A stretch of 64,000 nucleotides of DNA from an uncultured Verrucomicrobiota bacterium (GCA_964548925.1 CAZJTM010000005.1:1689-65688), one strand, 5' to 3'; counted from the first letter of the stretch, positions 52,738 to 64,000 are shown. Made by a program: numbers and translations. Notes: a model not told the origin generated them from the letters alone.

Positions 52738-52878
52738 GGTCGTCTCCATCTGGGCAACCGGCAAGACCTGCCTCCCCTGCCCCGTCCGCTCGCTTGCAAC
52801 CGCGTTTCCGCCTGTTCCGCTTCCAAGGCTGCGTTTCTCAAATTGCCTCGCCGGCGCCATCCTTGGTATCGTTCGCCC

Positions 52879-54405
52879 ATGCTCGCAAAGGTGTGCTCCG
52901 CCGCCGTCAACGGCATTGACGCCTATCCGGTCGAAGTGGAGGTGAACGCCGGCTGGGGCGATACCCTCGTGGTCATCGTCGGTCTCCCCGACACTGCCGT
53001 GAAAGAATCGCGGGATCGCGTCTCGACCGCGCTGACCAACTCCGGCTTCAAGTTCCCCATGGGCCGCACCACCGTCAATCTCGCGCCGGCCGATGTGAAG
53101 AAGGAGGGGCCGAGCTTTGATCTCCCCATCGCGCTCGGCATGCTGGCCGCCAGCGAGCAGATCGAAACGGATCAACTCGACCACTTCGCCGTTGTCGGGG
53201 AACTCGCGTTGACCGGCGGCGTGCGGCCCTGCAAAGGCGTGCTGCCCATTGCGCTCTGCGCAAAGGCCCAAGGCAAAGTCGGAGTCCTCGTGCCCGCGGA
53301 GAACGCCGCGGAAGCCGCCGTCGTCGAGGGCCTGCAAGTGATCCCCGTCCAGAATCTGCGCGAGGCGGCGGCCTTCCTCGAAGGTGAAATCCGCCTGGCG
53401 CCGGTGAAGGTGGACGTCGCCGGCATCTTCGATCAACCGCTCGACAATGATGTGGATTTCTCCGAGGTGAAGGGGCAGGAGTCCGTCAAGCGCGCCCTGG
53501 AAATCGCCGCCGCCGGGGGACACAACGTCCTGCTTATCGGGCCGCCCGGCACCGGCAAATCCATGCTGGCGAAGCGCCTCCCCACCATCCTGCCGCCGCT
53601 CACGCTGGAAGAAGCGCTGGAGACAACGAAGATTCACAGCATCGTGGGCCAACTTGCGCCCGGGCAGGCGCTGATCACGCGCCGCCCCTTTCGCGCGCCG
53701 CACCACACCGCCAGCGATGCCGGCCTCTTGGGCGGCAACATCAATCCGACCCCCGGCGAGATTTCTCTGGCGCATCACGGCGTGTTGTTTCTCGACGAAT
53801 TGCCCGAGTTCAAACGCAGCGTCTTGGAAACCATGCGCCAGCCGTTGGAGGAGGGCCGCGTGACGATCTCGCGCGCCGCCGGCACAATGACGTTCCCCGC
53901 GCAGTTCATGCTCGTGGCCGCGATGAACCCGACCCCCGACGGCAAGATGCCGGGCGAATCCCGCTGTTCCCCGCGCGAAATCCACAACTACCTCAACCGC
54001 ATTTCCGGCCCGTTGCTCGACCGCATTGACCTGCACGTGGAAGTGCCGGCGGTGAAGTTCCGTGAGATCACCACCGATCACGTGGGCGAGACTTCGGCCC
54101 AAGTCCGCGAACGCGTCGTGGCCGCGCGCCGTCGCCAGCAAGAACGGTTCAAGGGAAAACCGAAGGTCACGTGCAACGCCCGCATGGGTCCGCGCGAGCT
54201 CAAATCGTGGTGCAAGCTGGACGAGGCGACGACGGAACTCCTCAAGTTCGCGATGGCCGACATGAACCTGAGCGCCCGCGCCTACGACCGCATCCTGAAG
54301 GTCGCCCGCACGATTGCCGACCTGGCCGGCACGGAGGCCATCTTGGCGGATCACGTAAGCGAGGCGATCCAGCTCCGCTCGCTCGATCGGCAGATTTGGG
54401 GTTGA
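52879..54405 (+). CDS. comM: YifB/ComM family Mg-chelatase-like AAA+ ATPase
   Basis: MLAKVCSAAVNGIDAYPVEVEV...FDLPIALGML...LLIGPPGTGKSMLA...GVLFLDELPEF. Confidence 0.9.
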   Translation: MLAKVCSAAVNGIDAYPVEVEVNAGWGDTLVVIVGLPDTAVKESRDRVSTALTNSGFKFPMGRTTVNLAPADVKKEGPSFDLPIALGMLAASEQIETDQLDHFAVVGELALTGGVRPCKGVLPIALCAKAQGKVGVLVPAENAAEAAVVEGLQVIPVQNLREAAAFLEGEIRLAPVKVDVAGIFDQPLDNDVDFSEVKGQESVKRALEIAAAGGHNVLLIGPPGTGKSMLAKRLPTILPPLTLEEALETTKIHSIVGQLAPGQALITRRPFRAPHHTASDAGLLGGNINPTPGEISLAHHGVLFLDELPEFKRSVLETMRQPLEEGRVTISRAAGTMTFPAQFMLVAAMNPTPDGKMPGESRCSPREIHNYLNRISGPLLDRIDLHVEVPAVKFREITTDHVGETSAQVRERVVAARRRQQERFKGKPKVTCNARMGPRELKSWCKLDEATTELLKFAMADMNLSARAYDRILKVARTIADLAGTEAILADHVSEAIQLRSLDRQIWG

Positions 54406-54413
54406 GACTGGTC

Positions 54414-54869
54414 ATGCGCTTCTTCCTGATTGACAAGATCACCCGCTGGGAAGTCGGCGTGCTCGCGGAAGGCGTGAAGAATGTTGCGCTGAGCGAGGAC
54501 TTCTTTGACGACCATTTTCCGCGGCGGCCCGTCATGCCGGGGGTACTGATCCTCGAAGGCATGGCCCAGCTCTCGGGTTTGCTGCTCGAAGCCAGCCTGC
54601 AACAGAAGCACGGGACGAATGCCAAGGCGGTCCTCACGGTTCTGGAGAAAACGAAGTTCCGCACGCTCGTGAAGCCGGGCGACACGCTGAGCTACCGGAC
54701 GGAGGTGGTGTCGGTGAACGAGGCCGGAGGCAAGGTCAAGACCACGGCCTTTCGCGGGGAAACCGTGGTGACTTCCACGGAAATGGTGTTCGCCTTCAAG
54801 CACGTTGACGACCCGCTGCTGGACGAGAAGCGGCGGCGGTTGATGAATTTGTGGATGAAAGGCGGTTGA
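54414..54869 (+). CDS. FabZ-type 3-hydroxyacyl-ACP dehydratase (canonical His/Glu)
   Basis: FFDDHFPRRPVMPGVLILEGMAQL. First gene of the coupled operon, 8 nt after comM. Confidence 0.8.
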   Translation: MRFFLIDKITRWEVGVLAEGVKNVALSEDFFDDHFPRRPVMPGVLILEGMAQLSGLLLEASLQQKHGTNAKAVLTVLEKTKFRTLVKPGDTLSYRTEVVSVNEAGGKVKTTAFRGETVVTSTEMVFAFKHVDDPLLDEKRRRLMNLWMKGG

Positions 54870-54883
54870 CGGCGGAGGGAACC

Positions 54884-56011
54884 ATGGGCGGCGCCATTGT
54901 CATCACGGGAATCGGCTTGGTCACGCCGCTCGGTGACAATCCACGCGAGGTTCTGCGCCGGATCGAGGCGGGAGAATCAGCCGCGTCGCCGCCGATGGGT
55001 TTCGATGCCACGCCTTTCGCGTGCCCCGTGTGTGCAGAGGTGAAGGATTTCCGACCGCAAGCGCACGTCGCGGAGGTCAAACGCCTCCGCCTGATGAATC
55101 GCGACGCCCAACTAGCCGTCGCTGCCGCGCGATTGGCGCTCCAGGATGCACGGCTCGAAGTCGGCGTGGACTATCGGCCGGACGAGATCGGTCTGTTCGC
55201 GGCCACCGGTCTGGCTGGGCTTCCGCTGGCGGATGTCACGCCGCTGATTCGGACCTCAACGTCGTCCGACGGGCAGTTCGATCTCGCGCAATTCGGTCAA
55301 GCCGGTTTGCGGTCAGTCAGCCCGATTCTCTCGTTCAAGATTCTCAGCAACATGCCGCTCTGCTTCGTTTCAATCTGCGAGAACATCCGGGGCGCGAACG
55401 CCGTATACACACCGTGGGAAGGACACGGCGCCCAAGCCATTGAGGCTGGCGTGCGCGCGATTCAATGCCGCGATGCACGATGCGCTGTTGTCGGCGGGTG
55501 CGACGTCAAAACGCACGAACTGGCTTTCATGAATCTGGAGCAGCACAGGCTGTTCGATTCGTGGAAAACAGAGCGGGTCGGCGTGATTCCAGGAGAGGGA
55601 GCGGTGTTCCTGGTGCTGGAGGAAGAGCAGGCAGCAGTAGCGCGAGGCGCGCGAACCTATGCCCACCTGGGGCGATCCAGCTTTTCCACTATGCACCCGA
55701 GGGGGCGAAGACAGGAAGCGCTGGTCCAAATGCTGCGGAGGCTTGGCTGCGCCGGTCCTGCGTCAATTGTCGCGGCCGGCGAGGATGACCCGGCAAGCCG
55801 CCAGGACGAGGAGGCGGCATTGCAGGCTGCTGGCATCAAAGCTGACACGACGCTGCATCCCAAGCGGCATGTGGGCAATCTGTTCGCAGCCGCCGCACTG
55901 CTGCAAATCGCGCTAGCCGCCTTGCTGGTCGAGCGATTTGGGCGACCGGTTCTGGCGAACTGCTTGGGCCACGGCAGCGAACAGGCGGCATTTGTCCTGG
56001 AATCCACATGA
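54884..56011 (+). CDS. Ketosynthase-like protein lacking the active-site Cys (chain-length-factor-like partner)
   Basis: Thiolase/KS fold (IVITGIGLVTPLG...). The position of the catalytic Cys reads NAVYTPWEGHGAQAIE instead of ..STACA(T/S)G... The KS His motifs are also absent. SD GGAGGG lies at 54875-54880. Confidence 0.75.
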   Translation: MGGAIVITGIGLVTPLGDNPREVLRRIEAGESAASPPMGFDATPFACPVCAEVKDFRPQAHVAEVKRLRLMNRDAQLAVAAARLALQDARLEVGVDYRPDEIGLFAATGLAGLPLADVTPLIRTSTSSDGQFDLAQFGQAGLRSVSPILSFKILSNMPLCFVSICENIRGANAVYTPWEGHGAQAIEAGVRAIQCRDARCAVVGGCDVKTHELAFMNLEQHRLFDSWKTERVGVIPGEGAVFLVLEEEQAAVARGARTYAHLGRSSFSTMHPRGRRQEALVQMLRRLGCAGPASIVAAGEDDPASRQDEEAALQAAGIKADTTLHPKRHVGNLFAAAALLQIALAALLVERFGRPVLANCLGHGSEQAAFVLEST

Positions 56012-57270
56012 GCCGGCGCGTGGTCATCACGGGATTGGGACTCTGCACTCCAGTGGGGCGCAGCGTGGATGAGTGCTGGCAGAATCTGCGAGCCGGACGC
56101 TCGGGCATTGGCCCGATCACGCTGTTTGACGCTGGCGCGTTGCCGGTGCGCATAGGTGGCGTAGTCAAGAAACTGGAGATCGCCCGGCTCGCGGAGAAGT
56201 TTCCCGTCGTTGCCAGCGAAAAGGATCGCAAGCTTTGGCTCGGATTGGACGCAGCTTCGCAGGCTTTCGCGGATTCCGGAATTCCAGCAGTCGCCTTCGA
56301 GCGGGCGTTGTTGCTGGTGGGCGTGAGTCTGGAAGCCTTCTTCTTGGAGCAGGTCACGCCAGTAGTTCAGGCGGAGAACTTGGCTCGGGCGCTCGCGGAA
56401 CGGCTGTTGCGGCAACGATGCGTGGAGAGACTACAGACACCACTGGATCGCCTGACCCAGATCCTCGGCGACTATTACGGAGTGCAAGGCCGTCGTTTCA
56501 CGAATGGCTCGGCTTGCGCCGCGGGAGCGCAGGTGATTGGCGAGGCGTTTCGCAGACTCCGCGACGGCTCGGCGGACGTGGCCATCGCGGGCGCGACGGA
56601 CAGTTCGCTGAATCCCCTGGGGCTCGGCGGTTTCAGCCTGCTCCAAATCCTTTCCACCGAAAACGAACAACCGCAGACGGCCTGCCGCCCGTTCGATGCC
56701 ACGCGCCAGGGGACGGTTCTCGCTGAAGGTGCGGCTTTCGTGGTGATGGAGGCGCTGGAGCATGCGCAACATCGCGGCGCACGCATCTACGCAGAAGTGC
56801 TTGGCTACGGCTCGTCGCTGGACGCCTACCGCGTCACCGATCCAGAACCGACCGGTCGGGGCGCGGCGTTGAGCATAGCCAAGGCGATCCAGGATGCGGG
56901 GTTGACACCCGGCGAGATTGATTGCGTCAACGCGCACGGCACCGGCACGCCCAAGAATGACGTGGCCGAAACGCTCGCCATCAAGCAGACTCTCGGCAAG
57001 CGCGCGTATGAGGTGCCCGTGACGGCGAACAAATCCATGACCGGCCACATGATTGCCACGAGCGGCGCAGCGGAAGTCATCGTCTCGGCTATGACACTGT
57101 TCCGCCGGGAAGTCCCGCCGACGATCAACCTCACCCATCGCGATCCTCAGTGTGACTTGGACTACGTGGCCGATGGCTGCCGGGCGTTTGGCGGGCGCAC
57201 GGTTCTGTCAAACTCATTCGGCTTCGGAGGGCAGAACGCCAGTTTGGTGTTCGGAAGATACGAACCATGA
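56008..57270 (+). CDS. fabF: Beta-ketoacyl-ACP synthase II-like (catalytically complete)
   Basis: [30 protein letters not shown] (Cys), [11 protein letters not shown] (His), [14 protein letters not shown] (His). ATGA overlap upstream. Confidence 0.9.
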
Positions 57271-58007
57271 AACGTGTTGCCTTGATCACGGGCGCGTCGC
57301 GCGGCATCGGCCAAGCCATCGCCGAAGAACTGGCGCGGCGGGGGCATCGGGTGGCGGTTGGCTTCCGCGAGCGTGCAGACGCGGCGCAAGCAGTGGTGGA
57401 GGGCATCCAGCACGCCGGCGGCGAGGGTTTCAGCATTCAACTCGACGTGACCAACGCCGCGGACTGCAACGCCGTCGCCGCCAGCATCCGCGAGCGTTGC
57501 GGGCGCCTCGACATCCTGGTGAACAACGCCGGCGTCACGGACGAATCGCCTGCGCTCGCGATGGAGGACTCCGCGTGGGAGCGTGTGCTCGCCGTCTGTC
57601 TCACCGGCGCGTTTCAACTGTCCCGGGCCTGCGCCAAATCCATGGTGCTGGGACCCTGGGGGCGGATCGTGAACATTTCGTCCGTCGTTGCCAGCCAAGG
57701 CGGACGCGGCCAGGCGAATTACGCGGCGGCGAAGGCCGGGCTGGAAGGGTTGACGCGAGCGCTCGCGATTGAGTTGGCGCCCCGCGGCATCCTCGTCAAC
57801 GCGGTGGCGCCGGGCGTGGTCGAGACTGAAATGTCGCAGCCAGTCCTACAGCGGCACGGCGGACGCATTTTGAGCCACATCCTGTTGGGCCGCGCAGGTC
57901 GGCCCACCGAGATCGCCAGTCTGGTTGCCTACCTCGTATCGGACGAAGCCTCCTACATCACCGGCCAGGTCTTCCGCGTGGATGGCGGTTTTGGGTTGAA
58001 CCTATGA
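57267..58007 (+). CDS. fabG: 3-oxoacyl-ACP reductase (classical SDR)
   Basis: [30 protein letters not shown] overlap. Confidence 0.9.
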
Positions 58008-58663
58008 TGGGCTACGACGATCTGCTTGAGTTGCTGCAGTCACGCCGTTCGCATCGGCGCTTCGAGGAGCGGGCGGTTGATCGGGAAGACATACGGCGCT
58101 TGCTTGAAGCGGCAGGCTGGGCGCCGTCCAACCACAACCGCCAGCCGTGGCGATTCCTTGTCCTGGAAGACCGGCAGGAGATTCAAGCACTGGCTGAAGG
58201 AGTCGGACGAAGTCTTGCGACGAGGCTGGAGTCGCTGCCGGCGGTGGCATCGGCTTACACCGCAGAGCTGGCGGAACACGCAGTGCTTTTCGGGCGGGCG
58301 CCACTGCTCATCGTGGCGTTGCACAAACATCCCGTTAGCGTGTCTGCCGCGCTGTTGGAAGGCGTAAGCCAGCCAGAACTGGTTTCCGGAGAGCCGCTCA
58401 GCGTGGCGATGGCGGTGGAGAATCTCCTGCTCGCGGCCCACGCGCTGCGGCTGGGCGCTTGCGTCATGACCGCGCCATTGTTGGCGCAGAATGTCGTGCG
58501 GAATTACTTGGCCGTACCGCCCAGTTTCGAGATCACGTGCTTCGTAGCAGTGGGGCATCCGGCGGAATTGCCCGTGCCGCCGCGCAGGAAAAAACTCGAA
58601 CAGATTGCCGAGTTCAGAAATGATCGCCGGCGTTCCGGGAATACCAAAGATGACGGACCTTGA
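58004..58663 (+). CDS. Nitroreductase-family flavoprotein
   Basis: [49 protein letters not shown] overlap. Confidence 0.85.
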
Positions 58664-59063
58664 AATCTTAGGAGAGTTGAAGCCCTTACTCGTGGAGGTG
58701 TTGGGCGTCGCGCCAGAGCAGATCCGGATGGAGAGCGTGCTGGTGGCGGACTTAGGTGCAGAATCCATTGACCTGCTGGACTTGAGCTTCCGCATCGAGG
58801 AGCAGTTCAAGGTGAGGATTGAAGCCAACGAGATCGAGCGCGAGGCGAGGAAACGCCTTCCCGGTGGCGTGTTTGAGAAAGACGGTTGCCTGACGGACGA
58901 GGCGCTGGCCGAAATCCGCAAGTCCATCCCTGAACTCGATCCAGCCAAACTCGTGAAGGGCCTGCGCAAGATGGATCTGCCGTCGCTGCTCACGGTCGCG
59001 TTCTTCGTGCATCTGATCGCGCGTAAGCTGGCAGCCAAGACAGAAGGAGTCGCCCATGCTTAA
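58650..59063 (+). CDS. Acyl carrier protein with ~60-aa C-terminal extension
   Basis: LKPLLVEVLGVAPEQIRMESVLVADLGAESIDLLDLSFRIEEQF (phosphopantetheine Ser in the AESID context). 137 aa in total. It overlaps the neighbours by 14 and 8 nt. Confidence 0.7.
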   Translation: MTDLEILGELKPLLVEVLGVAPEQIRMESVLVADLGAESIDLLDLSFRIEEQFKVRIEANEIEREARKRLPGGVFEKDGCLTDEALAEIRKSIPELDPAKLVKGLRKMDLPSLLTVAFFVHLIARKLAAKTEGVAHA

Positions 59064-59784
59064 TGGGCGCACAGCCTTCGTGACAGGCGGCACGGGTGCG
59101 GTCGGCGTCGCGATCGTGCGATGTCTCGCCCGGCATGGCGCGCGAGTGGCGTTCTCGTTCCATGACAACGAAGACAAGGCCCACGAGCTCGAGCGCGAGT
59201 TCGCCGGAAAGCCGGTCAAGGCGTGGAAGCTCGATGTGTTGGAGGCGGCGGCGACCGTGCGGCTGGCGGAGATGGTGGAGCAGGAGTTGGGCGCAGTGGA
59301 CATTCTGGTGAACAACGCAGGCATCACCCAAGTGATGCCATTTGCGCTGATCGAGGAGGAAGACTGGGATCGGATCATGGACGTGAACGTGAAGGGGATG
59401 TTCCTTGTCACGAAAGCGTTTGTGCGGCCGATGATCCGCCGGAAGGCCGGGAGCATCGTCAACCTCGGCTCGCTAGCCGGCATGCGAGTGTTGGAAGTCC
59501 CGGTGCATTACGCCACAGCCAAGAGCGCCGTGGTGGGTTTTACCCTCGCACTCGCCCGCGAACTCGCGCGCTACGGCATCCGGGTCAACGCCGTCGTGCC
59601 CGGCCTGCTCACCGACGGCGTGAGCGGGAATGTGCCGGACAAGCAGCGGGAGGATTACGTGCAGCATTGCAGCGCAGGCCGAGCGGGCAAACCGGAAGAG
59701 GTCGCGGAACTCGTGGCGTTCCTCGCCAGCGAGCGCGCCAGCTACATTAACGCCCAAGCCATCCACGTTGACGGAGGCATCTGA
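59056..59784 (+). CDS. Second SDR ketoreductase (FabG-like)
   Basis: AFVTGGTGAVGVAIV, NNAG, YATAKSAV. SD GAAGGAG lies at 59043-59049. Confidence 0.85.
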   Translation: MLNGRTAFVTGGTGAVGVAIVRCLARHGARVAFSFHDNEDKAHELEREFAGKPVKAWKLDVLEAAATVRLAEMVEQELGAVDILVNNAGITQVMPFALIEEEDWDRIMDVNVKGMFLVTKAFVRPMIRRKAGSIVNLGSLAGMRVLEVPVHYATAKSAVVGFTLALARELARYGIRVNAVVPGLLTDGVSGNVPDKQREDYVQHCSAGRAGKPEEVAELVAFLASERASYINAQAIHVDGGI

Positions 59785-60227
59785 TGAAGTTCCGGTTCGT
59801 GGACAAGATCCTCGCGTGGACGCCGCACCAGCGGATCGTCGGTGTTAAGGCGGTGTCGTTCGAGGAGTATTGCCTGAAGGAACCGTTTGGCGACGAGGCG
59901 AAGCTGCCGGAGACGCTGCTGTTGGAGAGTTTCCTGCAACTGGGAAATTGGCTGCTGCTCCTTTCTTCGGATTTCAACCAAATGGGAATGGTCATCCGAA
60001 TTTCGGAGGCGCGCTTCCATGATGCACTCCGACCAGGCCAGCAAGTGCGCATGGAAGTGACTCTGTCCCGACGGCACGAGGATGGTTTTGAGCTGTCAGG
60101 CGAAGGCACGGTGGACGGGCGCACCATCATCACGGGTCTGGGTTGCCTTGCGGCGACAATCCCGGCCACTGAGTATGTGAAGCCGGACGACCTGCGCGTG
60201 CTGTTCTCGGAAATCTACCAGCCCTGA
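59784..60227 (+). CDS. Hotdog-fold FabZ/FabA-like protein lacking the catalytic His
   Basis: MKFRFVDKILAW...KEPFGDEAKLPETLLLESFLQLG aligns to the FabZ HFP..P.MPGVL..EA.AQ region, with KEPF instead of DHFP. TGATG junction. Confidence 0.6.
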   Translation: MKFRFVDKILAWTPHQRIVGVKAVSFEEYCLKEPFGDEAKLPETLLLESFLQLGNWLLLLSSDFNQMGMVIRISEARFHDALRPGQQVRMEVTLSRRHEDGFELSGEGTVDGRTIITGLGCLAATIPATEYVKPDDLRVLFSEIYQP

Positions 60228-60241
60228 GAGATTCTACCGGC

Positions 60242-61672
60242 GTGAGATCGTCCCGTCCATACACCTACCTGGGCACGGTGACCGGCATGTGCCGGCAATG
60301 CCGTGCGCTGGTTCCGGCGCGAGTGCTGGAGACGGACGGCGCGGTGTTTCAAGAGCGGCTCTGCCCGACGTGTGGCCCATCCCGAGCGCGCATCGCGGAT
60401 GACGTGGACTGGTATCTGGAGCGAACTGCGACCACCGTCCGCTGCAAGCCGGCCCGCCAGCCATGTTCATCGGTGATGGCGGGTTGCCCGCACGATTGCG
60501 GTCCCTGCCAGTTCCATGCGAACGCCTGCCACCTGCCGGTGTTCTCCGTCACGAACGCCTGCAACATGAACTGCCCGATCTGCTTCACCTACAACCGGGC
60601 GGATCGGAAGTATTTCATGGGCCGCAATGAGCTGCACGCGCTGCTGGACCGACTCATCGCGCGGGCCGGGCCGTTCGATTTGATCAACATCACCGGCGGC
60701 GAGCCGACACTGCATCCGGATATTCTGGAGTTGCTGCGGGAGTGCCAGCGACCCGAAATCGGGCGCGTAACGATGAACTCGAACGGGCTTCGCCTAGCTG
60801 CGGACGAGGACTTGTGCCGGGCATTGGCAGACCTGGGTGTTTACGTTGTGCTTTCCTTTGACACGTTCCGCAGCGAAAGGTCGGCGAAGATTCATGGGCG
60901 GGATGTGGTGGAGGTCAAGCGGCGGGCACTGGCGAACCTCCAGCGCTTCGGCGTCGGCACCACGCTGCTTAACGTCATGATCCGGGGGCTGAACGATGAT
61001 GAGATCGGCGATGTCATCGCGCTGGCCCGGAACCACCCGGTGGTGCGCAGCGTGACGGTCCAGACGATGACGTTCACCGGCCACGGCGGAAGGAACTTCC
61101 AGCCGCGCGAGACGATGCCGCTGGACGGGGCGGCCAAGGCCATCGAAACGGCGACAAACGGGGCGCTGCGCGCATGCGACTTCTTCCCGCATGCCGGGGC
61201 GCATCCCCTTTGCTACAGCGTGGCCTACTACCTCAAGGACCAAGACCACTACCGGTCCTTGACGGACTTGTTCACGGTCGAGCAACTGCGGCAGATGCTT
61301 GACCATGGCTATCTCCTGCAACCGGGCGAGGACAGTCAGGATGTGTTTCGCAGTGCTATTGACCGCCTGTGGGCAGCCGGAGACACCGCGGAGGTTCTGC
61401 CGTCCCTCCGGCGACTTGTGGAACAGATGTATCCACCGGGCTGGGTTCTGTCGCCAGCAGAGCGCCAAGCCGTGGCTGAAAAGAACCTGCTCGCCGTTTA
61501 CCTTCACTCGCACATGGACGAGGACACGCTCGACCTTGGTCGTCTGTCGACGTGCCCCGACCAGGTACCTGACCCGGACGGTCGCCTCATTCCAGCGTGC
61601 GCCTACAATCTTTTTTACCGCGAGAAAGATCCGCGGTTTTGGCGCCCATCTGAAATCGGAGGCCGGCAATGA
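60242..61672 (+). CDS. Radical SAM enzyme, Tes/MJ0619-like architecture (paralogue 1)
   Basis: CRQC...CPTC knuckles, GCPHDCGPCQFH...C auxiliary cluster motif, CNMNCPIC (Cx3Cx2C), GGEPTL. C-terminal ...YLHSHMDEDTLDLGRLSTC...DGRLIPACAYN. GTG start. Confidence 0.85.
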   Translation: MRSSRPYTYLGTVTGMCRQCRALVPARVLETDGAVFQERLCPTCGPSRARIADDVDWYLERTATTVRCKPARQPCSSVMAGCPHDCGPCQFHANACHLPVFSVTNACNMNCPICFTYNRADRKYFMGRNELHALLDRLIARAGPFDLINITGGEPTLHPDILELLRECQRPEIGRVTMNSNGLRLAADEDLCRALADLGVYVVLSFDTFRSERSAKIHGRDVVEVKRRALANLQRFGVGTTLLNVMIRGLNDDEIGDVIALARNHPVVRSVTVQTMTFTGHGGRNFQPRETMPLDGAAKAIETATNGALRACDFFPHAGAHPLCYSVAYYLKDQDHYRSLTDLFTVEQLRQMLDHGYLLQPGEDSQDVFRSAIDRLWAAGDTAEVLPSLRRLVEQMYPPGWVLSPAERQAVAEKNLLAVYLHSHMDEDTLDLGRLSTCPDQVPDPDGRLIPACAYNLFYREKDPRFWRPSEIGGRQ

Positions 61673-62271
61673 ACTCTACCGGCAGCCCAGCGCCCCAGGA
61701 CGGACGCGAACGATTCGCTCGATTTCTCGCCGGCGAAACAGCCGATCGCGTCTTCAGTCATCCCACGTGTCATCCATCACAACCGACAGGCTTCTGTCCG
61801 TGCGACCGTCCCTTGCTAGCCCGGCTGAGGTTTTATGTGCGAGCATGGCTGCTGCTGGCGGTGCTGAAGCAGGCCTTCAACCGACCCAAGATTGCGCTGT
61901 TGCGGCGGTTCGGCGCCCGAGTGGGCCGCAACGTGTATCTCTCGGCCGACCTTTGGATTGACCCCACGTTTCCCGAACTGCTTACCATCGAAGACGACGT
62001 GCTGGTCGGCGTGGGCGTCAAAATCGCGCTCCACGAATTCGGGCCGAACCAGTTTCGTGCCGGGCGGGTCATCATCCGGAAGGGCGCGGTGATCGGGGGC
62101 TTTGCGCTAATCGGGCACGGCGTGGAGATCGGCGAGGGCGCGGTCGTGGCCGGCGGCACTGCAGTGGGCCGCGACGTGCCGGCGGGCAAACTGGCGGTGG
62201 GCAACCCGGCCAGAATCTTCGCGCTGCCCGACGCTGGCGGCGGGACTCTGGACAGCTCAATCCATGAGTGA
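61669..62271 (+). CDS. Membrane-anchored hexapeptide-repeat (LbH) acyl/acetyltransferase
   Basis: A hydrophobic helix (YVRAWLLLAVL), then IEDDVLVGVGVKI...IRKGAVIGGFALIGHGVEIGEGAVVAGGTAVGRDVPAGKLAVGNPARI. ATGA overlap. Confidence 0.75.
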   Translation: MNSTGSPAPQDGRERFARFLAGETADRVFSHPTCHPSQPTGFCPCDRPLLARLRFYVRAWLLLAVLKQAFNRPKIALLRRFGARVGRNVYLSADLWIDPTFPELLTIEDDVLVGVGVKIALHEFGPNQFRAGRVIIRKGAVIGGFALIGHGVEIGEGAVVAGGTAVGRDVPAGKLAVGNPARIFALPDAGGGTLDSSIHE

Positions 62272-63646
62272 ATACCTCACCAGCACACGATCCACCTGCA
62301 AGACTTGCCTGCGGCTGGTTGCCGCACAGGTTTTCGTCGAATCGGACGGCATCTGGCTGCGCAAGATTTGCCCCGATCACGGGCCGCAGAGGACGCGTGT
62401 TTACGGAGACGCGGAGAGCTACTTGAGGTTGGGGCATTTCCATCGGCGGGCCTCGTTGCCGCTGGCCTTCGCCACGGAGAACAAGGGTTGTCCGGATTCC
62501 TGCGGGCTTTGCCCCGATCACGAACAGCACATCTGCCTCCCGATTATCGAAATCACCGATCACTGCAACCTGGAATGTCCAATTTGCCTGGTGACCAATC
62601 CCGGCACCTACCACCGCACGCGGGAAGAGGTGGCACGTGTGCTGGACGCACTCATCCGATCCGAAGGTCAGATTGACGTGCTGAACCTTTCCGGCGGCGA
62701 GCCGACATTGAACCCGCACTTCCGCGTAATCATCGAGGAATGCGTTGGACGAAAAGAAATCCTCCGGGTCAGCGTCTCCACGAACGGTTGCGTGCTCGCG
62801 CGCGACGCCGACCTGCTGCGCTTCCTCGCCGAACGCCGGGTGATCGTCTCGCTCCAGTTCGACGGCCAGCACGACGACATCCATCGAACGCTGCGCGGGC
62901 GGCCGATGCTCGAAGAGAAACGGCGGTTGATCGAACAGTGTGCGGCGCTGGACGCGGCCATGTCGCTCACGGCCACGGTGGTTGCGGGGGTCAACGACAC
63001 GCGGCTGGTGGAGATTGCCGACCTGCTGTTCGAGCACGACCACATTCTGAGCGTGATGTTTCAGCCGGCGGCGTACGCGGGCCACGCCACCGCGCTGGGT
63101 CGCCCAGTGGACGCAGCGACCATTCCCGATGTGATTGCGGCACTGGAAGGAGCCGGAGCCGGAACGGTTTCGAAGGGGGATTTTTCGCCGTTGCCGTGCA
63201 GCCATCCGGCCTGTTTCTCGCTGGCGTTCTACCTTCGAGTCGAGGATCACGCTTACCGGCCCGTCAAGCAGCTAGTCAGCGCGGAACGCTATCTGGACCT
63301 CATCCAAAACCGCGCGATCTTTGGGACGGACGCCGATAGCTTCGCTCAGATCAGCGAGGCCGTTTACGAACTGTGGTCCGGCCCGGCGGCGTTGTCGCCG
63401 GATTCGCAGAAGGCACTTCAGGCGGTCCGACGTCTGCTGGCTGAGAGCACGAGCGGCGGTGGTTACGCACCAAAGAAGGCGCTCACCGTCGCTGAACATT
63501 CCGTGAAGTCTATCTTCATCCACCAATTCATGGACCCGGAGACGTTCGATCTGTCGCGGGCGCGGAAGTGCTGCCAGGTCTATCCGCAGCCGGATGGGCG
63601 AATGATCCCGGTCTGTGTTCGTAACTGCGTGAAGGGCTGCTCATGA
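62264..63646 (+). CDS. Radical SAM enzyme, Tes/MJ0619-like architecture (paralogue 2)
   Basis: CKTC...CPDH, GCPDSCGLCPDHEQHIC, CNLECPIC, GGEPTL, PLPCSHPACFS. C-terminal IFIHQFMDPETFDLSRARKCC...DGRMIPVCVRNC. Confidence 0.85.
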   Translation: MSEYLTSTRSTCKTCLRLVAAQVFVESDGIWLRKICPDHGPQRTRVYGDAESYLRLGHFHRRASLPLAFATENKGCPDSCGLCPDHEQHICLPIIEITDHCNLECPICLVTNPGTYHRTREEVARVLDALIRSEGQIDVLNLSGGEPTLNPHFRVIIEECVGRKEILRVSVSTNGCVLARDADLLRFLAERRVIVSLQFDGQHDDIHRTLRGRPMLEEKRRLIEQCAALDAAMSLTATVVAGVNDTRLVEIADLLFEHDHILSVMFQPAAYAGHATALGRPVDAATIPDVIAALEGAGAGTVSKGDFSPLPCSHPACFSLAFYLRVEDHAYRPVKQLVSAERYLDLIQNRAIFGTDADSFAQISEAVYELWSGPAALSPDSQKALQAVRRLLAESTSGGGYAPKKALTVAEHSVKSIFIHQFMDPETFDLSRARKCCQVYPQPDGRMIPVCVRNCVKGCS

Positions 63647-64000
63647 CACCGATCCCCAAAAGAACGCTGATGGCAGTGAACCTGTTCGCATTCGCACTTT
63701 GTGCCGCGATGATTCTGGGCGGATGGTGGAACTACGCGCCTCCACTGATTCCGACGACCGCGCAAGGTGGAACAGCGCTTGAAAACGGACTGCCCATGAC
63801 GGACAAACCGGATTCGCAACCGACGGCGACCTCCCGGCCCATGTCGGTTCTGAAACAGTGGATTGTCGTGATCACAGCGTTCGGCGTGAAGCCGGTTTAC
63901 CTGCTCGTGTCGCTCGCAGTCATCATTGTGCTGTGGCGGCGGCCGGCGCCGGATTTGACAGCGCTGCGCTGGGGCCTGATCTGGTTTTGGGTCGGCGAAC
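63643..64000 (+). CDS. Polytopic membrane protein, N-terminal part (runs off window)
   Basis: ATGA overlap with the radical SAM stop. The frame stays open to the window end. MTPIPKRTLMAVNLFAFALCAAMILGGWW...WIVVITAFGVKPVYLLVSLAVIIVLW...WGLIWFWVGE. Confidence 0.45.
   Translation, partial: MTPIPKRTLMAVNLFAFALCAAMILGGWWNYAPPLIPTTAQGGTALENGLPMTDKPDSQPTATSRPMSVLKQWIVVITAFGVKPVYLLVSLAVIIVLWRRPAPDLTALRWGLIWFWVGE

Follow-up and report, generated by a model that had tools for sequence, protein, structure and literature searches.

Two paralogous radical SAM enzymes, rSAM1 and rSAM2, are joined by a translationally coupled operon to a private type II FAS/PKS-like gene set in the 64,000-nucleotide stretch of DNA analysed here (the window). 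Such paired relatives of the tetraether synthase Tes in a FAS-like operon point to an undescribed radical-modified lipid. To our knowledge, no enzyme type other than Tes/GDGT-MAS has been shown to link two inert sp3 carbons by way of an intermediate bound to an Fe–S cluster, and we know of no bacterial Tes/GDGT-MAS homologue with a confirmed function. The literature searched contained no paper describing a Tes-type pair in a KS/ACP operon, in agreement with the first-pass annotation, which had considered a bacterial homologue in such a setting unreported. For fatty-acid-type lipids, modification by radical SAM enzymes is itself almost unknown (2026 review, PMC13459092).

The radical SAM pair and its operon

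The operon comprises 12 genes (Table 1), connected throughout by start/stop overlaps of 1–19 nt or a 14-nt gap. The two radical SAM ORFs lie on the plus strand exactly where the first-pass annotation had placed them, with a transferase between them; rSAM1 (476 aa) has a GTG start, rSAM2 is 460 aa long, and the gene for the 200-aa transferase HexAT overlaps the two by 4 and 8 nt. Both proteins align at full length with 32% identity across 455 residues (BLASTP, E 2e-79), a paralogy far above chance. The motifs read from the DNA at first pass were recovered in the translations of rSAM1 and rSAM2, respectively: the N-terminal CRQC...CPTC and CKTC...CPDH, GCPxxCGxCxxH...C as GCPHDCGPCQFH and GCPDSCGLCPDHEQHIC, the Cx3Cx2C radical SAM motif as CNMNCPIC and CNLECPIC, GGEPTL in both, and the tails YLHSHMDEDTLDLGRLSTC..DGRLIPACAYN and FIHQFMDPETFDLSRARKCC..DGRMIPVCVRN.

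Table 1. Genes of the operon, in window coordinates
Feature	Coordinates	Strand	Basis
FabZa, canonical FabZ-type 3-hydroxyacyl-ACP dehydratase, first gene	54414..54869	+	Pfam FabA-like, E 1e-23
CLF-like catalytically dead ketosynthase partner	54851..56011	+	Pfam: KS N-terminal domain only
KS, FabF-like ketosynthase, Cys-His-His triad intact	56008..57270	+	Pfam ketoacyl-synt N + C domains
FabG1, 3-oxoacyl-ACP reductase-type SDR	57267..58007	+	Pfam adh_short_C2, E 3e-66
Nitroreductase-family flavoprotein	58004..58663	+	Pfam Nitroreductase, E 6e-32
ACP with conserved ~55-aa C-terminal extension	58650..59063	+	Pfam PP-binding
FabG2, SDR reductase	59056..59784	+	Pfam adh_short_C2, E 4e-57
FabZb, hot-dog-fold protein without FabZ catalytic His	59784..60227	+	Pfam FabA-like, E 5e-9
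rSAM1, Tes/GDGT-MAS-type radical SAM enzyme	60242..61672	+	Family, PDB matches, ligand conservation, 149-sequence clade
HexAT, hexapeptide-repeat (LbH) acyl/acetyl-transferase, hydrophobic N-terminal segment	61669..62271	+	Pfam Hexapep
rSAM2, second Tes/GDGT-MAS-type radical SAM enzyme	62264..63646	+	Family/PDB matches, model and fold search, 110-sequence clade
Membrane-protein gene start, cut at window end, operon continues	63643..64000	+	ATGA overlap with rSAM2 stop

FabZa begins with an ATG 9 nt past the stop of an upstream ComM-like gene, and its catalytic motif dHFPxxPxmPGvLixEgmAQ is kept across 90 orthologues. The KS, whose gene has ATGA overlaps at both ends, retains C170, H310, and H347 and scores 400 bits against NCBIfam fabF, under the equivalog cut-off of 494. 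When aligned to it, the adjacent CLF-like protein has Trp, Ala, and Asn at the positions of Cys170, His310, and His347; the start codon of the CLF-like gene is uncertain, with an ATG at 54884 possible. FabG1 scores 264 bits against the NCBIfam FabG subfamily model (cut-off 222). The DLGxxSxD motif and the extension of the ACP are conserved in 88 orthologues with a median length of 137 aa; the mechanical ORF start of this gene is 58605. FabZb lacks the His of the FabZ HF position, and its own motif KAVSFEEY...LPExLxxES is kept in 66 orthologues. The best NCBIfam matches of HexAT, WcaF and heptaprenylglyceryl phosphate O-acetyltransferase (65 against 300 bits) among them, all fall far under their cut-offs, and a full-length homologue of the membrane protein (L001:1724-2752, 342 aa) belongs to no Pfam or NCBIfam family. 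Searches of Pfam and NCBIfam found no recognisable enoyl reductase in the cluster, which makes unsaturated intermediates plausible. The nitroreductase-family flavoprotein, with PDB relatives that include albonoursin synthase and BluB-like proteins, is a candidate enoyl reductase or dehydrogenase.

Tes-like architecture and metal sites

In Pfam, both proteins combine Zn_ribbon_HMPTM (the HMPTM/MJ0619 N-terminal zinc ribbon, PF23545) with a Radical_SAM core (PF04055), the latter at 94 and 72 bits (cut-off 29.5), which places them in the radical SAM superfamily. Their sole strong sequence match in the PDB is the archaeal tetraether and macrocyclic archaeol synthase GDGT-MAS/Tes (MJ0619; 7TOL), aligned at full length (phmmer, E 2e-51 and 7e-46). 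An AF2 model of rSAM2 (pLDDT 83, pTM 0.87) matched 7TOL/7TOM with TM 0.79–0.80 and E 1e-36 in Foldseek, and other PDB folds reached TM ≤0.40 through the radical SAM core only. TrsS and Tes are the top NCBIfam models for both proteins. TrsS (NF045646), for which the literature searched describes no function, scores best and aligns end to end (228.7 and 275.0 bits, cut-off 490), and the Tes equivalog (NF045702) gives 223.0 and 226.6 bits against a cut-off of 450. In a neighbour-joining tree, the rSAM1 and rSAM2 clades are each monophyletic, both deep and apart from Tes, with identities of ~29% between the clades, ~43% within them, and only ~26% to GDGT-MAS. The tree and the identities indicate that the pair is an ancient duplication within the Tes/GDGT-MAS architecture. 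The Tes/MJ0619 family named at first pass therefore stands for architecture and homology, by Pfam, the 7TOL match, and the fold; orthology to Tes is rejected, given scores of about half the cut-off, the separate clades, and a His in place of Met439. A SPASM- or PqqE-like maturase (PqqE, MftC, sactisynthases), which would have counted against that assignment, is rejected because Pfam found no SPASM family in either protein (E ≤0.01), NCBIfam matches to SPASM-type families are confined to the radical SAM core (30–55 bits), and the fold matches of the rSAM2 model outside GDGT-MAS stay at TM ≤0.40.

The four-domain architecture and the order of sites are those of GDGT-MAS: a rubredoxin-like CX2C-X20-CX2(H/C), an auxiliary CX3CX2CX2H, the radical SAM CX3CX2C, and a three-Cys C-terminal cluster. 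Using GDGT-MAS ligands as defined in PMC9433317, we counted conservation over 149 distinct rSAM1 and 110 distinct rSAM2 sequences, in which each motif Cys or His is 99–100% conserved, save the fourth rubredoxin ligand. The putative rubredoxin-like site, which follows the CX2C-X20-CX2H pattern of that paper, consists of C17, C20, C41, and C44 in rSAM1 and C12, C15, C36, and H39 in rSAM2; the first three are 99–100% conserved, and the fourth alternates, with either Cys or His in rSAM1 and His in most rSAM2 sequences. The N-terminal auxiliary [4Fe-4S] ligands, given for MAS as C73, C77, C80, and a His, correspond to C82, C86, C89, and H92 in rSAM1 and C76, C80, C83, and H86 in rSAM2, all invariant. 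Equally invariant are the radical SAM cluster ligands C107, C111, and C114 of rSAM1 (n = 149) and C101, C105, and C108 of rSAM2 (n = 110). The C-terminal cluster would be held by C324, C438, and C453 with H422 in rSAM1 and by C317, C436, and C451 with H420 in rSAM2; the columns of MAS C338, C455, and C470, cysteines assigned to this cluster by conservation, are 99–100% Cys in both clades. Each enzyme is thus predicted to carry a radical SAM [4Fe-4S] cluster, two auxiliary [4Fe-4S] clusters, and a rubredoxin-like iron site. Since CX3CX2C and GGEPT are kept in rSAM1 and rSAM2, both should be catalytic.

The labile Met439, the fourth C-terminal-cluster ligand, is replaced in both clades: its column is His in 148/149 rSAM1 (H422) and 110/110 rSAM2 (H420) sequences, and Met in 9/9 archaeal-clade sequences and in rSAM3. 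In addition, H89, C91, C312, and C437 are invariant in rSAM2, three Cys more than in the MAS set. With the Met439 to His exchange, these cysteines suggest that the C-terminal cluster may support a chemistry other than that of Tes. The first-pass annotation had staked its reading on conservation of the extra Cys motifs among orthologues, and this is what we see (99–100%) except for the last rSAM2 tail cysteines after C451 (CVRNCVKGCS); these are <90% conserved among the 110 sequences, so that this stretch of the proposed 'Cys-rich C-terminus' is no family feature.

Conserved neighbours and known lipid systems

Co-occurrence was scored over the 77 distinct loci whose flanks were long enough, counting neighbours within 9 kb of rSAM1; the loci were retrieved by the radical SAM proteins themselves and the figures depend on the tblastn thresholds. 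On this basis, rSAM1 is accompanied by rSAM2 in 90%, FabZa in 78%, KS in 77%, the nitroreductase in 70%, and ACP in 68% of loci. FabG2 has the tightest link to the radical SAM pair, occurring in 76/77 loci (99%), mostly directly upstream. HexAT, present in 45% and missing from many otherwise complete clusters, is an accessory member, and the membrane-protein gene comes after rSAM2 in many loci. A cysteine desulfurase–rhodanese fusion (NifS-type) occurs in 39% of clusters, often immediately before rSAM1, and a B12 radical SAM gene lies near rSAM1 in 10% of loci, one example of which (L002) scores 55 bits against TIGR04072 (cut-off 360). Minimal versions of the cluster (L024, L216) consist of ACP-FabG2-rSAM1-(HexAT)-rSAM2. 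Larger versions add up to three more radical SAM enzymes and an aminotransferase, suggesting a pathway more complex than a single coupling step. The cluster core is found under ~20 phylum labels, and all 235 loci come from MAGs. LolA/RseB-like DUF1571 and LptF/G genes adjoin some clusters, and many orthologues carry the JGI label '7,8-dihydro-6-hydroxymethylpterin dimethyltransferase'.

GDGT-MAS/Tes stands alone, whereas rSAM1 and rSAM2 are usually paired in an ACP/KS/KR/DH operon, and their substrate, unlike that of GDGT-MAS, is probably no isoprenoid diether. In both the anammox 'ladderane' Cluster I (KustE3603-3608) and the kuste3335-3352/Desulfotalea cluster, radical SAM enzymes likewise share a FAS-like operon with a private ACP and a FabZ variant, and an active FabF is paired with a catalytically dead one in a KS/CLF-like manner (10.64898/2026.05.19.726425; PMC2649909; PMC4790861). 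However, the radical SAM enzyme of Cluster I is cobalamin-type and is accompanied by a phytoene-desaturase homologue, with no Tes-type enzymes (10.64898/2026.05.19.726425). Cluster I is defined by amxACP, amxFabZ, and FabF2/FabFmut together with the desaturase homologue and a B12 radical SAM enzyme; the window operon shares the KS and dead-KS pair and a private ACP with it and contains neither of the last two genes, and membership is rejected. The rSAM1/rSAM2 cluster family, sampled through 106 in-cluster ORFs, showed no AMP-ligase, phytoene-desaturase, or glycosyltransferase. Mss of Thermotoga and Clostridia is a radical SAM enzyme that couples two fatty acyl tails, the reaction type considered here (PMC13159169; PMC13274423); it is described as only remotely related to Tes (PMC13159169).

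Candidate reactions

The best reading, which we hold with moderate confidence, is Tes-type radical C–C bond formation on an acyl chain made on the ACP. The KS/CLF–ACP module would assemble a defined acyl chain, and rSAM1 and rSAM2, in succession or as a complex, would each cleave SAM and take H from an unactivated carbon of this chain, presumably while it is ACP-bound. The C-terminal cluster would capture the radical and a C–C bond would form as in GDGT-MAS, giving a tail-to-tail dimer or a ring closure, and the modified lipid would be passed to the hexapeptide transferase and the membrane protein. The two successive steps or heteromer suggested at first pass are compatible with the frequent co-occurrence of the two genes. 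Several observations fit this reading less well: the Tes and TrsS scores, which come to about half of their NCBIfam cut-offs, the Met439 to His exchange in both clades and the three extra invariant Cys of rSAM2, the further radical SAM enzymes and aminotransferase of the larger clusters, and the desulfurase–rhodanese fusion, which also fits sulfur chemistry. Moreover, Tes uses finished phospholipids and no ACP thioesters (PMC9433317). The broader claim of a widespread unseen pathway, in which Tes-type enzymes forge C–C bonds between or within ACP-tethered fatty-acid-like chains, is tentative and rather doubtful. If it were true, uncultured anaerobes of many phyla would carry a new class of cross-linked bacterial lipids, membrane-spanning or carbocyclic, which might account for some orphan sedimentary lipids, brGDGT-like compounds for example.

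The architecture and ligands shared with GDGT-MAS could also mean that the pair are true bacterial tetraether or membrane-spanning-lipid synthases, which act Tes-like on finished membrane glycerolipids. Two fatty acyl tails would then be linked at their omega carbons, with iso-diabolic-acid or brGDGT-type lipids as the outcome, and the only role of the adjacent FAS genes would be to supply the special fatty acid. A role for bacterial Tes homologues in making brGDGTs has been proposed (PMC8941075), anoxic brGDGT sources besides Acidobacteria are still sought (PMC13274423), the titles of the MAG records point to sampling of peat, lakes, groundwater, and sediment, and the DUF1571 and LptF/G genes beside some clusters would suit such a role. 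We nevertheless consider it unlikely. The proteins fall below the Tes equivalog cut-off in clades of their own with His for Met439, and no Tes homologue was detected in any tested producer of diabolic or iso-diabolic acid, Mss acting there instead (PMC13159169; PMC13274423). Neither a glycerolipid acyltransferase nor an ether-forming gene was seen in the 106 in-cluster ORFs, the close link is with ACP and SDR and not with phospholipid genes, and two paralogues are retained where archaea need one Tes.

Sulfur insertion at an unactivated acyl C–H in the manner of LipA or BioB, with the C-terminal cluster as sacrificial sulfur donor, is improbable. It would turn the C–S(cluster) adduct, a mere intermediate in Tes, into the product, and a bond between substrate carbon and sulfide at the C-terminal cluster does belong to the Tes mechanism (PMC9433317; PMC13459092). 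The Met to His exchange and the three invariant rSAM2 Cys near that cluster could aid its turnover, and the NifS-type fusion often stands right before rSAM1. Yet most loci lack this desulfurase, as does the window for as far as it extends, and it may just support assembly of the many Fe–S clusters; no gene for sulfur handling recurs in every version of the gene cluster, and NCBIfam and PDB sequence searches revealed no relationship to LipA, BioB, or MiaB beyond the radical SAM core.

Similarly improbable is some other radical reaction on an acyl chain or a non-lipid substrate, for which the Tes-like shell would be a scaffold only. This could be a desaturation, an epimerisation, a rearrangement, or a methylation, the activity implied by JGI's old pterin methylase name ('HMPTM'). 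The JGI label on many orthologues, the HMPTM name of the Pfam zinc-ribbon family, a closest NCBIfam model (TrsS) without known function, and a cluster without a recognisable enoyl reductase leave room for it. Against this, the context is ACP/KS/KR/DH with no pterin or methanopterin genes, Pfam shows no evident cobalamin domain or second SAM site, and the authors who solved the structure of MJ0619 and showed lipid coupling were unable to corroborate its pterin methylase role (PMC9433317).

Metagenome surveys now score any 'Tes homologue' as brGDGT potential, and the sequence signature described here tells rSAM1 and rSAM2 from true Tes in such data. The pair also constitutes a natural Met to His variant of a key labile ligand, and ACP-FabG2-rSAM1-rSAM2 with the KS/CLF module form a defined, conserved set open to cloning and expression as a unit.

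Two paralogues of tetraether synthase architecture

The first-pass annotation had placed two paralogous radical SAM enzymes of the archaeal tetraether synthase type on either side of an acyltransferase. Both ORFs are real, rSAM1 encoding 476 aa and rSAM2 460 aa; they align over the whole length of both with 32% identity (E 2e-79), and every motif string read from them was found in their translations. Long matches that hinted at inteins in rSAM1 were joined matches to an adjacent radical SAM gene. Using Pfam, we found Zn_ribbon_HMPTM, the MJ0619-type N-terminal knuckle, and Radical_SAM in both proteins, and a SPASM domain in neither. Among all PDB sequences, the sole strong match is the archaeal tetraether lipid synthase GDGT-MAS (Tes, MJ0619; PDB 7TOL/7TOM), spanning residues 7–455 and 15–470 (E 2e-51 and 7e-46); the others match only the radical SAM core (E > 1e-6). 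An AlphaFold2 model of rSAM2 (pLDDT 83, pTM 0.87) gives TM 0.79–0.80 on 7TOL/7TOM, the next folds (SuiB, SkfB and viperin) reaching TM ≤ 0.40. Thus the family claim was right at the level of architecture. The top curated NCBIfam model is the radical SAM (seleno)protein TrsS, with 229 and 275 bits against a cut-off of 490, and the Tes model gives 223 and 227 bits against 450. With scores below both cut-offs, rSAM1 and rSAM2 are members of the Tes/TrsS superfamily and of neither equivalog. TrsS appears in the literature searched only as a selenoprotein table entry, with no function.

According to the structure report, GDGT-MAS has its rubredoxin-like site at C9-X2-C12-X20-C33-X2-H36, a [4Fe-4S] cluster near the N-terminus with ligands C73, C77, C80 and a His, the radical SAM cluster motif CX3CX2C, and a labile Met439 at the C-terminal [4Fe-4S] cluster (PMC9433317). 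We aligned 273 distinct Tes-like proteins, gathered from 235 loci, with the 7TOL sequence. The ligand motifs are indeed kept among orthologues, as the Cys/His columns are 99–100% conserved in each of the rSAM1 (n = 149) and rSAM2 (n = 110) clades, apart from the fourth rubredoxin ligand, where either Cys or His occurs. Because these columns are conserved in both clades, both paralogues should bind the full metallocofactor set and cleave SAM, and rSAM1 and rSAM2 are, judged by sequence, two catalytically complete enzymes of Tes architecture. The Met439 column holds Met in 9/9 archaeal-clade sequences, as it does in rSAM3, a third paralogue from Verrucomicrobia, and His in 148/149 rSAM1 (H422) and 110/110 rSAM2 (H420). 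H89, C91, C312 and C437 are invariant in rSAM2 and have no counterparts in GDGT-MAS. The surroundings of the C-terminal cluster are thus systematically unlike those in Tes, where the cluster forms a C–S intermediate.

A rough NJ tree, built without bootstraps, resolves rSAM1 and rSAM2 as two monophyletic groups; mean identity is ~43% inside each clade, 29% from one to the other and 26–27% to the archaeal clade. By these figures the duplication is ancient, with both copies retained, and the pair has stayed together since before many phyla diverged. In some Verrucomicrobia, rSAM3 lies 1–2 kb downstream (L004, L003 and L009) and, unlike rSAM1 and rSAM2, retains the Met.

The operon and its conservation

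Twelve successive genes run from 54414 to the window end, with overlaps of 1–19 nt or a 14-nt gap. The two ketosynthase homologues form a KS/CLF-like pair. The ACP consists of a normal domain and a ~55-residue C-terminal extension conserved in 88 orthologues across phyla. FabZb, directly upstream of rSAM1, carries a conserved motif KAVSFEEY...LPExLxxES. No enoyl reductase of any known type is present in the cluster. The operon extends past rSAM2, as the membrane-protein gene begins at its stop; in L001, the closest relative at 85% identity, this protein has 342 aa and no known family, and a SPASM/twitch-like radical SAM gene is next. A ComM/YifB-type Mg-chelatase-like ATPase gene on the same strand stops 9 nt before FabZa. 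In a promoter and terminator scan of 52–64 kb, the counts equalled those in shuffled sequence.

Genes of the window operon and of related loci. Shares refer to the 77 distinct loci in which rSAM1 is flanked by no less than 7 kb on its upstream and 5 kb on its downstream side, with genes counted within 9 kb by tblastn, so that they are too low for small or divergent genes.
Gene	Feature	Coordinates	Strand	Share of loci	Remarks
	ComM/YifB-type ATPase	52843-54405			
1	FabZa	54414-54869		78%	canonical HFP...PG...E motif
2	CLF-like KS homologue	54851-56011		51%	Trp/Ala/Asn in place of Cys/His/His
3	FabF-like KS	56008-57270		77%	triad intact
4	FabG1	57267-58007		62%	
5	nitroreductase-family flavoprotein	58004-58663		70%	
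6	ACP	58650-59063		68%	~137 aa
7	FabG2	59056-59784		99%	
8	FabZb, hot-dog protein	59784-60227		48%	FabZ catalytic His missing
9	rSAM1	60242-61672	+		
10	hexapeptide transferase	61669-62271	+	45%	200 aa; Pfam Hexapep
11	rSAM2	62264-63646	+	90%	
12	membrane protein, start only	63643-64000, runs past window		30%	ATGA overlap with rSAM2 stop
	membrane protein of L001	L001:1724-2752			
	SPASM-like radical SAM	L001:2635-3780		51%	
	NifS-rhodanese fusion	L002:11594-13483; L044:18124 onward		39%	
	rSAM3	L004:12374-13789			
	extra genes of bigger versions	L044:12185-13192; L154:13929-15284; L023:5070-5726; L209:11374-12093			

Four scans, covering the contigs of one genome per species, gave the 235 loci. 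FabG2-rSAM1-rSAM2 and an ACP make up the invariant core, and the pair is genetically welded to a private ACP, SDR and KS/CLF-type chain-building module. The proposed acyltransferase does sit between rSAM1 and rSAM2 as a hexapeptide-repeat protein, but the locus shares make it an optional member; its NCBIfam matches (small O-acetyltransferases and LpxA-type enzymes) are all far below cut-offs. A NifS-type cysteine desulfurase-rhodanese fusion, with a possible role in supplying Fe-S clusters or in sulfur chemistry, often lies directly before rSAM1 (L002, L044, L220–L229 and other loci). In bigger versions of the cluster, rSAM1 and rSAM2 are separated by two extra radical SAM genes. Such versions also contain PEMT/ICMT-like methyltransferases, B12 radical SAM genes, DUF1571 (LolA/RseB-like) proteins and a class-III aminotransferase whose best model, PigE, scores below its cut-off. 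Among their additional genes is a radical SAM gene of ~335 aa, in some cases with DUF3463.

Candidate chemistry

No paper in the literature searched describes a KS/ACP operon with paired Tes-type enzymes, in keeping with the earlier remark that no bacterial homologue was known in such a setting. We describe a distinct, widespread Tes-related enzyme pair in a fatty-acid-like biosynthetic operon. We infer that the KS/CLF-type module would build an ACP-borne chain as the substrate of rSAM1 and rSAM2, which may perform Tes-like radical C–C bond formation leading to dimerisation or ring closure, the paralogues acting as two steps or one complex; this proposal stands about evenly between right and wrong.

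That the pair are true membrane-spanning-lipid synthases acting on phospholipids seems unlikely, since the HMM scores stay below threshold and Met has given way to His. [quoted passage not shown] Bacterial Tes homologues appear in the literature searched only as unconfirmed brGDGT candidates (PMC8941075, PMC11868695, PMC13459092). Sulfur insertion, to which the NifS-rhodanese association and the C–S intermediate of Tes would point, is somewhat less probable still, the desulfurase not being universal among the loci. Other radical chemistry, the old pterin methylase name included, has a similarly slim chance, and the solvers of the GDGT-MAS structure were unable to corroborate that assignment (PMC9433317). 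Domain content, fold and context are all contrary to the pterin methylase (HMPTM) and PqqE/SPASM readings, and both were dropped.

Related clusters and carriers

Anammox Cluster I shares with the window operon a private ACP, a FabZ variant and a KS/dead-KS pair, FabF2/FabFmut, which the window pair much resembles; it differs in that its radical SAM enzyme is of the B12 type and that it uses a desaturase homologue (10.64898/2026.05.19.726425). In the kuste3335-3352/Desulfotalea cluster, FabZ-ACP-FabG are followed by two 'SAM radical' genes (PMC4790861; PMC2649909), a published order resembling that of the core described here. Its accessories (CoA ligase, phytoene desaturase and GT) are absent from the 106 in-cluster ORFs of the window's cluster family, and these three genes are likewise missing from the cluster in a 'Pelobacter sp.' MAG (L209). 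The four genome scans, examined for a link to this 'ladderane' cluster (kuste3342/3343, DP1853/1855), yielded no locus from a reference Kuenenia, Desulfotalea or Geobacter genome. In genome-mining surveys, 'ladderane-type' BGCs of unknown function are described as common in Verrucomicrobia (PMC7298704, PMC8692599).

All 235 loci are from MAGs and none from a cultured carrier; exact look-ups gave nothing beyond entries that were unnamed or called 'hypothetical protein'. The labels include Verrucomicrobiota, Planctomycetota, Victivallales, Elusimicrobiota, Myxococcota, Desulfobacterota, Nitrospirota, Riflebacteria, Muiribacteriota, Calditrichia, Fibrobacterota, Bacteroidota/Ignavibacteriales, Bacillota, Chloroflexota, Actinomycetota, Acidobacteriota, Spirochaetota and several proteobacterial classes. 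Some look wrong: contigs labelled 'Bifidobacteriaceae' (L005/L116), 'Thermoplasmatota archaeon' (L032) and 'Ca. Kuenenia stuttgartiensis' (L185/L186) carry clusters whose closest relatives are in other phyla, likely through mis-binning or gene transfer. In the last, rSAM1 is closest to Elusimicrobiota/Nitrospirae (63–65%), and the gene order is unlike kuste3335-3352.
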